From: an uncultured Gemmatimonadales bacterium | GTDB taxonomy: Bacteria; Gemmatimonadota; Gemmatimonadetes; Gemmatimonadales; GWC2-71-9 | Direction: 5' to 3' | Assembly (NCBI GenBank): GCA_963812085.1 | Contig: CAWETL010000009.1 | Coordinates: 374,592-438,591, forward strand | DNA: 64,000 bases | Part shown: positions 27,792-56,150 of the stretch, one piece after another | How positions within the stretch are numbered: position 1 is the first letter of the stretch | How the letters are laid out: the number at the start of each line of letters is the position of its first letter | Position numbers and translations under genes: made by a program | The notes under the pieces: generated by a model | What the model was told of the DNA's origin: nothing | What the model saw: the letters and a program-made list of their open reading frames with translations, nothing else | Databases searched by the model: none

Positions 27792-27881
27792 TTCTGTCAT
27801 TGCGAGGCCGCGAAGCGGCCGAAGCAATCTGGCCCGAGATTGCTTCGTCGGGCCCGCTGGGCCCTCCTCGCAATGACAGAA
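27792..27881. repeat. complete ~90-bp element of the hairpin repeat family (arm A forward + arm B reverse)
   Basis: Sequence: TTCTGTCATTGCGAGGCCGCGAAGCGGCCGAAGCAATCTggcccGAGATTGCTTCGTCGGGCCCGCTGGGCCCTCCTCGCAATGACAGAA. It is intercistronic, between the pyrophosphorylase stop and the leuA-like start. Confidence 0.85.
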
Positions 27882-27902
27882 CGCTGCGGCCGCGCACCGC
27901 AG

Positions 27903-28880
27903 TCAGCGCGCGTGCAGTTCGGAATCGTCGCCCAGGCTGGCGTCCCCGCGGAGGCCGCTCACCTTCACGCGGTTGCCCAGGAGGGCGCCGTCCAGCGTCG
28001 ATCCGGTGATTTCCGCGTCGCGCCCGACGATGGCGTTCCGCACCGTGCTGTCGGAAATGCGCGTCCCCGCCTCGAGCGACACGTTGGGCCCGATCGTGCT
28101 CCGCTCGACGACGACGCCGTCCTCGATGTACACCGGATCCACCACGGTGACGCCCGGGAAATCGCGCCGGCGGGCGGCGCCCTTTTCCAGCAGGATGCCG
28201 TTGGTCTCCAGCAGGGTGCCCGGCGCGCCGCAGTCGTACCAGCCGCCCACCTCGGCAGCGAGGATGCGCCGGCCGTGCTCGATCATCTGCTGGAAGGCGT
28301 CGGTCAGGTAGTACTCGCCCTTGTTGGCGGGAGCCGCCAGCACGTGGTCGATCCCGGCCCAGAGCGACGCCACGTCCCGGATGTAGTAGAGCCCGATGTT
28401 GGCGAGCTTCGAGATCGGCGTGGAGGGCTTCTCCACGATCTTCGTCATGTAGCCCTTCGCGTCGGTCACCACCACGCCGAAGCGCTGGTAGTCCTCGACC
28501 TCCTTGGCCCAGATGATCCCGTCGGCGTCGGTCCGGCGGATCAGCGACAGGTCCGCCTCGAACACCGTGTCCACGAAGATGATCAGCACCGGACCGGTCA
28601 CGTAGGGCCGCGCCAGGTTGATGGCGCCCGCGGTGCCGTCCTGCACCTTCTGCTCGATGAACCGGCAGGGGAGGCCGTAGCGGTCCTTCGCGTACGCCTC
28701 GACCGTTTCCTTCAAGTGGCCGGTGATGAAGATCAGCTCGGTGACCCCCAACCCCTCGATCCGGTCCATGACCCAGTCCATGACCGGCCGGCCCGCCACC
28801 TTGAGCATCGGCTTGGGCACGAGATGGGTGTGCGGCCGGAGCCGCGTCCCCTTGCCGGCCAGCGGAATGATGACCTGCAT
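27903..28880 (-). CDS. NDP-sugar pyrophosphorylase (nucleotidyltransferase + left-handed beta-helix C-domain)
   Basis: From ATG 28880: MQVIIPLAGKGTRLRP..PKPML (GxGTRL motif). The C-terminal hexapeptide-repeat-like region is ..VVERSTIGPNVSLEAGTRISDSTV... Confidence 0.8.
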   Translation of the reverse strand: MQVIIPLAGKGTRLRPHTHLVPKPMLKVAGRPVMDWVMDRIEGLGVTELIFITGHLKETVEAYAKDRYGLPCRFIEQKVQDGTAGAINLARPYVTGPVLIIFVDTVFEADLSLIRRTDADGIIWAKEVEDYQRFGVVVTDAKGYMTKIVEKPSTPISKLANIGLYYIRDVASLWAGIDHVLAAPANKGEYYLTDAFQQMIEHGRRILAAEVGGWYDCGAPGTLLETNGILLEKGAARRRDFPGVTVVDPVYIEDGVVVERSTIGPNVSLEAGTRISDSTVRNAIVGRDAEITGSTLDGALLGNRVKVSGLRGDASLGDDSELHAR

Positions 28881-29233
28881 CAGCTCCCCCGGCCGTAGCG
28901 GTCGGAGAGGCGGACCAGGTCGTCCAGCTCGGGCGTCGAGGCTTCCAGCACGTCGCTGTCCACCACCGCCTCGATCTGGTGCACCAGTCCGGCGGGGATG
29001 TGGACCGACTCGCCGGCGCGGAAGGCGCGCGCAACCAACTCGTCGCCGGGCCGGGTCCGCAGGATCAGCTCGCCGGAGAGGACGTGCATCGTCTCGTCCT
29101 TCTTGTTGTGGTACTGCAGGCTCAGCACATGGCCCGCCTTCACGTGCAGCACCTTGCCCACGTAGCGGTCGGTCCGGGCCCAGATGAGTTCGTGACCCCA
29201 CGGCTTGTCCACCCGGTATGGCACGTCCGGCAT
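28880..29233 (-). CDS. cupin domain protein (mannose-6-phosphate isomerase type II-like)
   Basis: From ATG 29233: KPWGHELIWA...KAGHVLSLQYHNKKDETMHVLSG is a cupin motif. 1-nt overlaps with both neighbours. Confidence 0.7.
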   Translation of the reverse strand: MPDVPYRVDKPWGHELIWARTDRYVGKVLHVKAGHVLSLQYHNKKDETMHVLSGELILRTRPGDELVARAFRAGESVHIPAGLVHQIEAVVDSDVLEASTPELDDLVRLSDRYGRGS

Positions 29234-29817
29234 CAAGTCTCCACCATGCGAAGTTTGAAGGAAGACGGCGACGTCACGCACGCGCGGACGCACACCCCGC
29301 ATCCGACGCAGCCCTCGGCCCGGATGACCGGGTGCCCGGCGTCGTCCATGGACAGCGCCCGCTCGCCGATCGGGCAGGCCTTGGCACAGACGCCACATTC
29401 CGACCCGTGAAAGGTGATGCACCGCTCAGGCAGGAGCTCGAGGACACCGAGGTGCTGGCCGACCCACCCGCTCGCCGGGACCGTCAGCGCCTCGGTCGGG
29501 CAGGCCGCCGCGCACGGCATGTCCGGGCAGGCGATGCACGGCTGCAGCTTCGGGTCGAAGAACGGCGTGCCGGCCGCGAGCCCCGCGCTCGGCGCGGCGA
29601 ACTGGATCGCGTGCGGCGGGCAGACCGGGCCGCAGGCGCCGCAGCGCGTGCAGGCAGTCAGGAACCCCACCTCCGGCAGCGCGCCCGGCGGCCGGAAGTA
29701 GCGCTGCTGGATGACGGTGTTTTCGGCCTTCTCGACCAGATTCTCGATCCAGTCGCCGACCATGTCGCGGAAGAAACCCCGCCGGTCGCCGCCGCGTCTA
29801 TCCCAGGGCCCGGTCAT
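29233..29817 (-). CDS. NapF/MauM-like ferredoxin-type protein with multiple 4Fe-4S motifs
   Basis: RRGFFR...RPPGALPE..FLTACTRCGACGPVCP matches the NapF-like N-terminus. Further clusters are CIACPDMPCAAACP, CGVCAKACP and CVGCGVCVRAC. Confidence 0.75.
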   Translation of the reverse strand: MTGPWDRRGGDRRGFFRDMVGDWIENLVEKAENTVIQQRYFRPPGALPEVGFLTACTRCGACGPVCPPHAIQFAAPSAGLAAGTPFFDPKLQPCIACPDMPCAAACPTEALTVPASGWVGQHLGVLELLPERCITFHGSECGVCAKACPIGERALSMDDAGHPVIRAEGCVGCGVCVRACVTSPSSFKLRMVET

Positions 29818-29844
29818 GCAGGAAGTCTAGCTGGCACGACCACT

Positions 29845-54058: not shown

Positions 54059-54092
54059 TCTACGACCCGGGGATGTTCCGGCCAGAGGGGTG

Positions 54093-55553
54093 CTACAGGA
54101 TGTACCGCCGGAGATCGTCGTCGGTCACGATGGCCATCAGGCGGTCCCGCACCCGGGCGCCGTCGAAGACGAACCGCTTTTCGCTGGTCTCGGGGAGGTC
54201 GAACAGCAGGTCTTCCATCAGGGTGGCCATCACGGTGTGGAGCCGGCGGGCGCCGATGTTCTCCATGCGGCCGTTGGCCAGCGCCGCGATCCGCGCGACC
54301 TCCGCGATCCCGTCCGCGGTGAACTCGAGGGTCGCCGCCTCCGCCGCCACCAGCGCCTGGTACTGCTTCACGATCGCGTTCTCGGGCTCGGTCATGATCC
54401 GGACGAAATCAGCCTCCGTGAGCGGCGTGAGTTCCACCCGGATGGGGAACCGGCCCTGCAGCTCGGGGATGAGGTCGGACGGCTTGGACACATGAAACGC
54501 CCCCGCCGCGATGAACAGGATATGGTCGGTCCGCACATACCCGTACCGGGTCTGCACCGTGGAGCCTTCCACGATCGGCAGGAGGTCCCGCTGCACGCCC
54601 TCCCGGCTCACGTCGGGGCCCCCGCCCTGCCCCCGCTCCCCCGCGATCTTGTCGATTTCGTCGATGAAGAGGATGCCGTGGTTCTCGGTGCGGTCGAGCG
54701 CCTCGTTCACCACGTCGTCCATGTCCACCAGCTTCTTCAGTTCCTCGTCCACCAGGATGCGCCGGGCGTCGGGCACCCGGACGGTCCGCCGCTTCTTCTT
54801 CTTCGGCATCATGTCCTGCAGCATCTCGACGAAATTGATTTCCGGCCCTTCCATGCCGGGCGGCTGCTGCAGCAGGTCCAGCATCGGGTAGTTCTGGGGC
54901 GAGATCTCGATGTCCACGTCGCGGTCGTCGAGCTTGCCGTCGAGCAGCATCTGCCGGAGTTTTTCCCGTGAGCGCTGCCGGCTCGCGTCGGCGTCCACCG
55001 CCTCCGGCTGCGCCGCGCCGCCGGGGGACACCACGAAGACCTTGTCCGACGCGGCGGCCTCCGCCTTCGCCGGCGCGGGCGGGAGGAGGATGTCGAGGAG
55101 GCGCTCGTCCGCGCGCTGCTCCGCCTGCGGCCACACCTCGTCCTCGCGCTCGGCGCGCACCATCGAAATGGCGGCGTCCACCAATTCCCGCACCATCGAC
55201 TCGGCGTCGCGCCCCACGTAACCGACCTCGGTGAACTTCGACGCCTCGACTTTCACGAACGGCGCGCCGGCCAGCCGGGCAAGCCGGCGTGCCACCTCCG
55301 TCTTTCCGACGCCGGTGGGGCCGATCATGATGATGTTGTAGGGGGTGATCTCGTCCCGGATGCCGTCGGGCGCCTGGCTCCGCCGCCACCGGTTCCGGAT
55401 GGCGATGGCCACCGCCTTCTTGGCGGCGTCCTGCCCGACGATGAACCGGTCGAGTTCCGCCACGATCTTCCGGGGTGGAAGCTCCTCGAGCCAGGGCGGT
55501 GCGGCGTCGGCGGGGGTCGAGCCGCCGGGCGCCTCGGTGGCGGGAGTGGTCAC
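54093..55553 (-). CDS. hslU: ATP-dependent protease ATPase subunit HslU
   Basis: [25 protein letters not shown] and GPTGVGKTE Walker A match HslU. GTG start with a 4-nt overlap with the hslV stop. Confidence 0.9.
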
Positions 55554-56093
55554 GAGGCGCCCAGTTCCAGCACCGTGATGTGGTCGTTGGTGAACACGCA
55601 GATCTCCGCGGCGATGCGGAGCGAGCGGTCCACCGTCTCGCGCGCCGAGAGCGCGGCGTCCGGCAGGAGTGCCCGCGCGGCGGCGAGGGCGTAGTTGCCG
55701 CCCGAGCCCACCGCGAGGATGCCGTCGTCGGGCTCGATGAGTTCGCCGCTGCCGCTCAGGAGGAAGCTGTGCTCGAGGTCGGCCACCACGAGCAGCGCCT
55801 CGAGCCGCCGGAGGATGCGGTCGCTCCGCCAGTCCTTGGCGAGCTCGACGGCCGCCCGCGGCAGGTTGCCGGGGTGGCGCTCCAGCTTTTCCTCGAATTT
55901 TTCATAGAGCGTGAGCGCGTCGGCCACCGACCCGGCGAATCCCGCCAGGATCTTGCCGCCCTTGAGGGTGCGCACCTTGGTGGCACGGCCCTTCATGACG
56001 GTGTCGCCCACACTCACCTGGCCGTCGCCGCCGAGGGCGACGCGTCCGGCCTTCCGGACGGTGAGGATCGTGGTGCCGTGGAATGATCGTCAT
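55550..56093 (-). pseudogene. hslV: ATP-dependent protease subunit HslV with apparent frameshift after codon 3-4
   Basis: The body frame reads ..[38 protein letters not shown].. (catalytic Thr region). That frame has a TGA at 56090-56092 and no ATG/GTG/TTG before the catalytic Thr. The only ATG (56093, ATG ACG ATC A|TTC CAC GGC) is offset by one nt. Confidence 0.75.
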
Positions 56094-56112
56094 GAGTGCA
56101 AATCCCCAACCA

Positions 56113-56150
56113 GGTTGCTCCGACCGCCACGCGGCCTCGCAATGACAGAA
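56113..56150. repeat. solo hairpin arm, type A (reverse orientation, degenerate inner end)
   Basis: The sequence is GGTTGCTCCGACCGCCACGCGGCCTCGCAATGACAGAA. It lies between the xerC stop and the hslV start. Confidence 0.7.

Follow-up and report, generated by a model that had tools for sequence, protein, structure and literature searches.

The stretch of DNA analysed here, referred to as the window, comprises 64,000 nucleotides (nt) of contig CAWETL010000009.1 from an uncultured Gemmatimonadales bacterium and has a G+C content of 70%. It contains a family of short hairpin repeats (arms) and, between two of them, a gene for a 97-amino-acid (aa) GIY-YIG nuclease, which probably is the protein that recognizes these repeats in single-stranded DNA (ssDNA). 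The 10-mer CGCAATGACA, searched with at most one mismatch, occurs in 16 copies compared to 2.96 expected ones, and none of 100 shuffled sequences reached this number. With a covariance model (CM) trained on arms of one type (S) and applied with filters off, exactly 11 full arms were found in the window (E-values of 4e-14 to 2.5e-6) and nothing else scored comparably. Seven of them are S arms and four belong to a second type (L). These arms and four additional truncated 5′ heads are listed in Table 1, and every one of them is intergenic, as the initial annotation of this region had stated. The gene contexts named in that annotation were confirmed by Pfam as NTP_transferase/HMGL-like, ATP-synt_A/ATP-synt_C (atpB/atpE), OTCace/GCV_T (argF/gcvT) and Phage_integrase/Proteasome (xerC/hslV), with 7-25 nt separating the arms from the stop codons of xerC, argF, atpB and the NTP_transferase gene. 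Three doublets (27791-27882, 30396-30498 and, inverted, 35149-35239) show the arrangement S→ ←L with heads pointing outward; in the first of them, the arms stand tail to tail and the predicted ssDNA fold reaches -38 kcal/mol (z -8.9). Rfam yielded no match at gathering score for the whole window, none at E ≤ 1 for 27700-30600 and none by E-value for 34900-35300. A literature search by the arm sequence itself returned nothing relevant, and from the GC skew across the 64 kb no orientation of the arms relative to replication was obtained.

Table 1. Positions of the hairpin arms and the GIY-YIG nuclease gene in the window.
Feature	Position	Strand	Support and context
Solo S arm (TTCCGTCATTGCGAGGCCACGCAGTGGCCGAAGCAATC)	9687..9727	-	CM 62.7 bits, E 6e-13; between convergent PEMT-like and ETF genes (Pfam)
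S arm of the doublet between NTP_transferase stop and HMGL-like start	27791..27831	+	CM 67.1 bits
L arm of the NTP_transferase/HMGL-like doublet	27836..27882	-	CM 37.7 bits; inner stem GGGCCC/GGGCCC
Four tandem truncated 5′ heads (..CCCCTTCTGTCATYGCGMGGCC..)	~29843..29951	+	Directly upstream of a full S arm
S arm directly upstream of the GIY-YIG gene	29952..29992	+	CM 67.7 bits, best match
GIY-YIG nuclease gene (Ssn-like, single domain, 97 aa)	30040..30333	+	Pfam PF01541, E 9e-14; presumed cognate protein of the arms
L arm directly downstream of the GIY-YIG gene	30337..30383	-	CM 43.5 bits
S arm of the second doublet, downstream of the GIY-YIG gene	30396..30436	+	CM 58.5 bits; GGCCGC/GTGGCC, one G.T pair
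L arm of the second doublet, downstream of the GIY-YIG gene	30451..30498	-	CM 42.6 bits
L arm of the atpB (ATP-synt_A)/atpE (ATP-synt_C) doublet	35149..35194	+	CM 35.2 bits
S arm of the atpB/atpE doublet	35199..35239	-	CM 62.9 bits; ~25 nt past the atpB stop codon
Solo S arm, argF (OTCace)/gcvT	50551..50591	-	CM 61.6 bits
Solo decayed S arm, xerC/hslV	56111..56151	-	CM 55.4 bits; fold z -0.8

Read 5′ to 3′ from its head, the S arm has the order TTCTGTCATTGC-GAG-GCCRC-loop-GYGGC-CGA-AGCAATC and the L arm the order TTCTGTCATTGC-GAG-GAG-GCCCC-loop-GGGGC-CGA-CGA-AGCAATC, i.e., L differs from S by two matched insertions of 3 nt, an additional GAG 5′ of the loop and an additional CGA 3′ of it. Both types thereby consist of a TGTC head, a near-invariant outer stem ATTGC/GCAAT with one bulged A, a GAG/CGA module (once in S, twice in L), a GC-rich inner stem of free sequence, a loop of 3-4 nt and a C(T/C) tail. 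We infer that each GAG/CGA module forms two sheared G.A pairs and one G-C pair. A kink-turn was considered for the internal loop and ruled out, as the bulge measures 1 nt instead of 3. The head reads TGTC in ten of the 11 window arms and CGTC in the arm at 9687; across 174 arms, the base preceding GTC is T in 110 and C in 46 cases (TGTC/CGTC head in 156 of 174). For intact single arms, the predicted ssDNA fold (-9 to -14 kcal/mol, z -2 to -3.8) agrees with the hairpin of outer stem, internal loop and inner GC stem that was described in the initial annotation. The doublets reach -31 to -39 kcal/mol (z -6 to -9) and could also fold into one long hairpin. All inner-stem variants reported previously were found where they had been placed. 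Two entries needed correction, namely the arm at 30396, which is GGCCGC/GTGGCC with a G.T pair, and the arm at 56111, which combines GGCCGC/GCGGTC with an outer-stem mismatch and folds no better than shuffled sequences (z -0.8).

Two further observations concern the boundaries of the arms. The S arms at atpB/atpE and argF/gcvT share a stretch CACRRTTCGCTTSTGTC 5′ of their heads (35239-35259 and 50591-50606, minus strand), which the other S arms do not have; this sub-lineage of S arms may thus extend ~15 nt past the boundaries given in the initial annotation. The truncated heads (..TTCTGTCATTGCGAGGCC..) form a tandem stack immediately upstream of a full arm, and all of them break off near the beginning of the inner stem. 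Such stacks recur at other loci (L001, ~9885-9915; L014, 2730-2776; L018, 4483-4529; L030, 4838-4882; L051, upstream of the gene), including ones from unrelated phyla. They look like a mechanistic footprint, be it of slippage or of repeated cutting and repair. One weak promoter-like match overlaps a truncated head, which is no more than expected by chance.

That the inner stem varies by compensatory changes had been claimed from a few window copies. Within the window the covariation is thin, as only two pair positions vary, one in S arms (A-T/G-C, passing through a G.T intermediate) and one in L arms (C-G/G-C). With arms from relatives included it is solid. Among 18 S arms, 99% of the cells are paired and four of the six inner pairs are altered on both sides, and none of 500 shuffles scored as high. 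An alignment of 146 distinct arms from many phyla, which was fitted to the model and is therefore biased toward the structure, exhibits 97.2% pairing (89.6% when shuffled) with double changes in eight pairs and 82 cells (0/500), while pairing drops to 20-50% in slid controls. An alignment-free permutation test gave 0.777 compared to 0.588 ± 0.017 (0/2000). As slid and shuffled controls and this independent test agree, the data argue that the covariation signal is genuine. The asymmetry between G.T and A.C mismatches, which bears on the question of which strand is selected, comprises small counts only. The outer stem hardly varies and is therefore uninformative on the structure; its invariance suggests a sequence-specific recognition. 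A further kind of compensatory change is seen at argF/gcvT, where one genome carries an S and another an L arm, meaning that the two matched 3-nt indels move together. The head, the outer stem, the GA-rich loop and the tail, all conserved across phyla, fit better with recognition by a protein than with a generic protection of mRNA.

A candidate for such a protein is encoded directly between an S arm (29952-29992) and an L arm (30337-30383). It consists of a GIY-YIG domain without any other Pfam domain, and the same is true for all 169 homologs, which are ~95-105 aa long and contain PF01541 only. Close homologs of ~97 aa are mostly found in metagenome bins of Gemmatimonadota, many of them on very short contigs, as would be expected because the gene is embedded in repeats. 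Homologs from Devosia and sphingomonads are 52-57% identical to the window protein. The residues Y10, Y21 and E68 are invariant in 17 homologs, and the spacing of this Tyr/Tyr/Glu set (11 and 47 residues) is identical to that of Y6/Y17/E64, the catalytic residues that were mutated in SsnA of Neisseria meningitidis (PMC11893778). No specific family model for the protein exists in NCBIfam, and a sequence search of the PDB yielded only weak matches to the distant UPF0213 proteins 1zg2 and 1ywl. Identification as a phage homing endonuclease or as a known defence protein was rejected, as PHROGs gave only a weak generic endonuclease match and PADLOC none.

The bracketing by arms recurs in relatives. 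In L001, whose protein is 73% identical, the order is again S→ gene ←L, the two inner stems now reading GGTCCC/GGGACC, and in L002 (70% identical) it is L→ gene ←S with more doublets alongside. The GIY-YIG gene adjoins a Peptidase_M1 gene in the window, L001 and L002. Because this neighbourhood is kept in three genomes, it looks as if the GIY-YIG gene is inherited vertically and is not hopping itself. The Peptidase_M1 neighbour occurs in three different relative orientations (window, 29233-33484; L001, 8034-10294; L002, 8388-10297), and relative to the S and L arms beside it, the GIY-YIG gene of L002 is inverted, an arrangement consistent with inversion between flanking inverted arms.

In the initial annotation the arms had been left unconnected to this gene. 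The association of both holds, however, across phyla. A profile of the protein scanned against one genome per species returned 80 loci from Chloroflexota, Pseudomonadota, Acidobacteriota, Planctomycetota, Cyanobacteria, Bacteroidota, Patescibacteria and others, and the arm type GTCATTGCGAG...GAAGCAATC is present in most of them. A window-type arm is located no more than 250 nt from the gene in 53 of 82 homologous loci, and in 28 of them on either side of it. Of 100 arms at loci whose 5-kb flanks were complete, 74 are found at most 500 nt from the gene, compared to 12.7% expected (p ~1e-44). Most frequent across phyla is GTCATTGCGAGGAGCGAAGCGACGAAGCAATC, an L arm with an inner hairpin that consists of GCGAAGC only; d(GCGAAGC) is a DNA mini-hairpin reported as unusually stable by Hirao and colleagues in the 1990s. 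S/L doublets are also found at loci from Chloroflexota, Acidobacteriota and Melainabacteria, and in other phyla the same arm type ends with ..AATCCAG. At a locus from Dehalococcoidia (L035), which encodes a protein 54% identical to that of the window (E 3e-34), the gene is flanked by CGTCATTCCCGTGAAAACGGGAATCCAG, practically the NTS repeat of Neisseria, and five loci (L061, L062, L067, L076 and L081) carry other repeat variants. In Vreelandella salicampi (L056, 3536-9105), the GIY-YIG gene is surrounded by an array of 15 arms that all point the same way, without any inverted doublets, unlike the situation in the window.

At the operon sites, the presence of arms differs among closely related genomes. 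For atpB/atpE, 80 metagenome loci were gathered with the AtpB protein and the atpB-atpE spacer was extracted. This spacer has a length of 299 nt in the window and of ~193 nt in most close relatives, and the difference corresponds to the ~106-nt doublet inserted right after the atpB stop codon. The doublet is absent in L083 despite 97.7% nucleotide identity in atpB, and the site is likewise empty in L084, L085, L086, L089-L092, L094 and L097. L087 and L088 carry the doublet, while it is lacking in their sister L086 (96.2%). L096 has an L arm only, its sister L094 (95.9%) has none, and all more distant loci are without the doublet. No target-site duplication is visible at the atpB insertion. The doublets of the window and L087 have derived features in common, namely a TTGTG head and GCACARTTCGC as the left flank. 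By whichever route this pattern arose, the atpB/atpE site is polymorphic among near-identical genomes. At xerC/hslV, no arm is present in L163-L166 (HslU 92-94% identical), where only 2-27 nt lie between the xerC stop and the hslV start. The arm at argF/gcvT is older: L166 carries an S arm, L165 an L arm with identical position and orientation, and only an apparent 3′ remnant is left in L164.

Two features next to these sites were noticed in addition. Downstream of the doublet and upstream of atpE, a leader of ~190 nt (34961-35145, minus strand) is conserved in the Gemmatimonadota metagenome loci L083-L162. It forms two hairpins in which 15 of 18 predicted pairs are compensatory over 31 sequences, has no Rfam match and may represent a cis-regulatory RNA, as yet undescribed, of the gene for the ATP synthase c subunit. 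At the start of hslV (56078-56092, minus strand), the window reads ATGACGATCATTCC, whereas the sequence is ATGACGA-CATTCC in four relatives. One additional base at codon 3, ~20 nt away from the decayed arm, shifts a conserved stretch of 10 residues out of frame with the ATG; the insertion is either an assembly indel or a genuine frameshift.

SsnA of N. meningitidis, a single-domain GIY-YIG protein of 94 aa, binds its repeat NTS (CGTCATTCCCGCGMAVGCGGGAATCYRG) as ssDNA only and on one strand only, cuts ssDNA a few nt upstream of it and is not active on dsDNA or RNA (Chenal et al., Nat Commun 2025; PMC11893778). Homologs of ssnA in many phyla are flanked by "Ssn-related motifs" (SRM), and four of these homologs were shown to cut their own repeats (PMC11893778). 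Starting from what was directly observed in the present analysis, namely the repeat family, its hairpin, the covariation, the gene-repeat association and the presence/absence polymorphism, we consider it likely that the arms are SRMs of the CGTC/TGTC-tagged class of repetitive extragenic palindromes (REPs) and that the GIY-YIG nuclease is their cognate protein, acting on ssDNA. By homology to SsnA, the window protein would bind and cleave specifically ssDNA. The head-bearing strand, when single-stranded, for example during replication, repair or DNA uptake, would fold into the hairpin. The nuclease would then read the conserved head, the outer stem, the GA modules and the tail and would need the inner stem only as a helix, which is why the latter could drift by compensatory change. 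The cut would be placed a few nt 5′ of the head. As heads point outward in the S→ ←L doublets and in the S-gene-L unit, each DNA strand would therefore have one cleavable arm, cut just outside the unit.

Three points weigh against this reading. The published SRM pattern HGTCWYN(0-2)YYVSBRHN(0-5)WNVSBRGN(0-2)RNCYNB fits none of the 11 arms. Their head (GTCAT) and tail (ATC) agree with it, and they are missed because the pattern requires YY right after GTCWY and a contiguous stem. Further, changing the sequence of the N. meningitidis palindrome while keeping the hairpin abolished activity (PMC11893778), so that a freely varying inner stem implies a mode of recognition that would differ somewhat from that of SsnA. 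Finally, as the doublets of the window and L087 share derived features, the patchy distribution at atpB/atpE may stem from recombination or repeated loss and not from repeated insertion. On sequence grounds, the arms and the protein can thus be placed in the Ssn/SRM kind as an apparent interrupted-stem subtype and not as a literal match. The SRM pattern has three matches in the window (48697, 57062 and 60201), which are unrelated to the arms. One of them lies within the open reading frame of xerC (57062-57089, minus strand) and reads CGTCACCCCGGCGAACGCCGGGGTCCAG, where a perfect 8-bp palindrome is combined with a CGTC head and the tail CCAG. This may be an NTS-like repeat inside a gene or a match that arose by chance in DNA with a G+C content of 70%.

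In the initial annotation, the arms were viewed as intercistronic stem-loops in RNA whose structure is under selection and which could affect differential mRNA stability, attenuation or processing, as was shown for some REPs of Escherichia coli. This appears unlikely to us. It is true that arms between co-directional genes of an operon would be co-transcribed and that "REP-like" named the right general class, for which a stabilization of upstream mRNA is established (summarized in PMC3733652). The RNA hairpins predicted for single arms (-17 to -20 kcal/mol) and doublets (-57 to -62 kcal/mol) are strong, and the intermediates at 30396 and 56111 are G.U-compatible. The three solo arms do share one orientation on the minus strand, although the supposed relation to minus-strand neighbours is only half true for the arm at 9689, which lies between convergent genes. 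However, the same junctions are empty in the closest relatives (atpB/atpE in L083, xerC/hslV in four genomes), the doublets put both orientations into the transcript, and the arm at 29952 adopts a different structure when folded as RNA. The invariant head, outer stem and GA modules are kept in more than 15 phyla whatever the neighbouring genes are and cluster around the nuclease gene, whose characterized homolog SsnA does not bind RNA (PMC11893778). Moreover, the truly conserved structure in the atpB-atpE spacer, the leader mentioned above, is a different element. Selection for an intercistronic RNA function thus finds no support, with arms that flank a GIY-YIG gene, operon sites that vary and a homologous nuclease that ignores RNA, and any RNA-level effect on these operons looks incidental.

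Even less probable is that the arms are ordinary miniature inverted-repeat transposable elements or REPINs that are moved by a classical transposase encoded elsewhere in the genome, either of the DDE type or a Y1/REP-associated tyrosine transposase (RAYT) of the IS200/IS605 kind, with the GIY-YIG gene being a bystander or a frequent target. The doublets indeed resemble REPINs in consisting of two inverted hairpins and a short spacer, the presence/absence polymorphism would fit, and movement of CGTC REPs by unrelated transposases was left open previously (Di Nocera 2013; PMC3733652). Yet the atpB site lacks a visible target-site duplication, the heads are predominantly TGTC or CGTC and not GTAG as in RAYT-associated REPs, and CGTC REPs flank no transposase gene (PMC3733652). 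Were the GIY-YIG gene a bystander, it would be a strange coincidence that a protein of this kind is encoded by the flanked gene in the window, in L001, in L002 and at most of the 82 loci across phyla. The arms finally are GC-rich intergenic palindromes, often just past stop codons, but that they are DNA sites for host proteins (gyrase, integration host factor or nucleoid proteins, as proposed for the bacterial interspersed mosaic elements of E. coli) or simple intrinsic terminators is hardly credible, as none of them is followed by a T-tract, a terminator scan of 27000-36500 called four terminator-like sites of which none coincides with an arm, two arms lie within operons whose downstream genes must be expressed, and their specific association is with GIY-YIG genes while nothing ties them to gyrase or integration host factor.

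If the arms are SRMs with a cognate Ssn-like nuclease, their purpose in the Gemmatimonadales cell could be an ssDNA restriction of incoming DNA, as in Neisseria, a propagation of the repeats, as proposed for REPINs, or both. As the repeats come and go between near-identical genomes, they behave as mobile or unstable, REPIN-like DNA and not as fixed regulators. That the nuclease drives their spread is speculative. To our knowledge, GIY-YIG enzymes have no strand-transfer chemistry and are not known to join DNA, and any mobility would therefore need host repair or recombination. It is conceivable, though rather doubtful, that the S→ ←L doublets and the S-gene-L unit are active mobile DNA which depends on the Ssn-like nuclease, i.e., a REPIN/RAYT-like system built on a GIY-YIG fold in which matched GAG/CGA modules define two arm types. 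If so, the arm "ATTGCGAGG...GAAGCAATC", found here in over 15 phyla and missed by the published motif, would represent the principal form of the family, and the pattern at the atpB stop codon in three sister-lineage pairs would record recent insertion or excision.

The assignment proposed here would re-file apparent regulatory RNA hairpins as the cognate repeats of a family of site-specific ssDNA nucleases that was characterized only in 2025. Such hairpins in atp, hslVU and arg/gcv clusters should accordingly not be labelled operon regulators during annotation. The published search pattern does not capture a very widespread type of arm (GTCATTGCGAG...GAAGCAATC), in which the d(GCGAAGC) mini-hairpin often forms the core. 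The combination of a variable inner stem with conserved GA modules suggests which parts the enzyme may read, which is relevant to programmable ssDNA cutters, and the modular S/L architecture is worth noting for further work on Ssn nucleases. Sister genomes which differ by one doublet provide concrete filled and empty sites for studying the spread of the repeats.

Ssn/SRM is among the known systems closest to that of the window. Here as there, a single-domain GIY-YIG protein of ~95 aa with the same Tyr/Tyr/Glu spacing is encoded by a gene flanked on both sides by hairpin repeats, of which many intergenic copies exist. The repeats share a (C/T)GTCAT head, a palindrome starting with AT, an ..ATC(C/T) tail and a defined orientation. 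The proportions of loci with at least one arm (65%) and with arms on both sides (34%) are similar to the 71% and 42% published for SRMs (PMC11893778). The ssnA gene is typically organized as NTS-ssnA-NTS, and its discoverers pointed to a layout like that of an insertion sequence and to the analogy with REP/RAYT; in Neisseria, the system lowers transformation by NTS-carrying DNA (PMC11893778). The window arms differ in that their stem is interrupted (5 bp, bulge, GA modules, 5-6 bp), whereas NTS has the contiguous 8-bp stem ATTCCCGC, and in that their inner stem is free in sequence, whereas the sequence of the N. meningitidis palindrome mattered. Two arm types, S and L, which are paired as heterodimers, and a Gemmatimonadales host further set the present system apart.

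NTS is also the extended form of about half of the copies of dRS3 (PMC11893778), and dRS3 in turn is a member of the "CGTC-tagged REPs" (Di Nocera, De Gregorio and Rocco, BMC Genomics 2013; PMC3733652). Their head is an unpaired CGTC (or TGTC/CCTC), the stem opens with A-T pairs at its first two positions, the tail is short, heterodimers are frequent, and no dedicated enzyme was found for these repeats (PMC3733652). The window arms match this description with their unpaired CGTC/TGTC head, the A-T pairs at the first stem positions and the short unpaired tail, with inverted dimers that often are heterodimers (three S/L doublets and the S-gene-L unit) and with an intergenic location mostly downstream of genes. 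In contrast, the four described families have contiguous stems of 8-9 bp and loops of 4-5 nt, unlike the window arms with 5 bp, an internal loop, 6 bp and loops of 3-4 nt, and Gemmatimonadota are absent from the five phyla listed (PMC3733652).

With REP/REPIN-RAYT systems (Nunvar 2010; Bertels and Rainey 2011; PMC3116915), the window shares short hairpins that often form inverted doublets, a single-copy nuclease-type gene that is flanked by its own repeats and apparently inherited vertically, and repeat copies that are gained and lost within lineages. Its nuclease is, however, of the GIY-YIG type and not an HUH/Y1 transposase, and the head is TGTC/CGTC and not GTAG. The ssDNA transposons of the IS200/IS605 family likewise depend on hairpins recognized in ssDNA, subterminal ones in their case, and on cleavage a few nt outside the hairpin, which for the window arms is suggested by homology. 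The window system differs from them in having no Y1 transposase, in that no defined target tetranucleotide or pentanucleotide is established for its arms, and in the S-gene-L unit, whose two cleavable arms would lie on opposite strands and not on the same strand.

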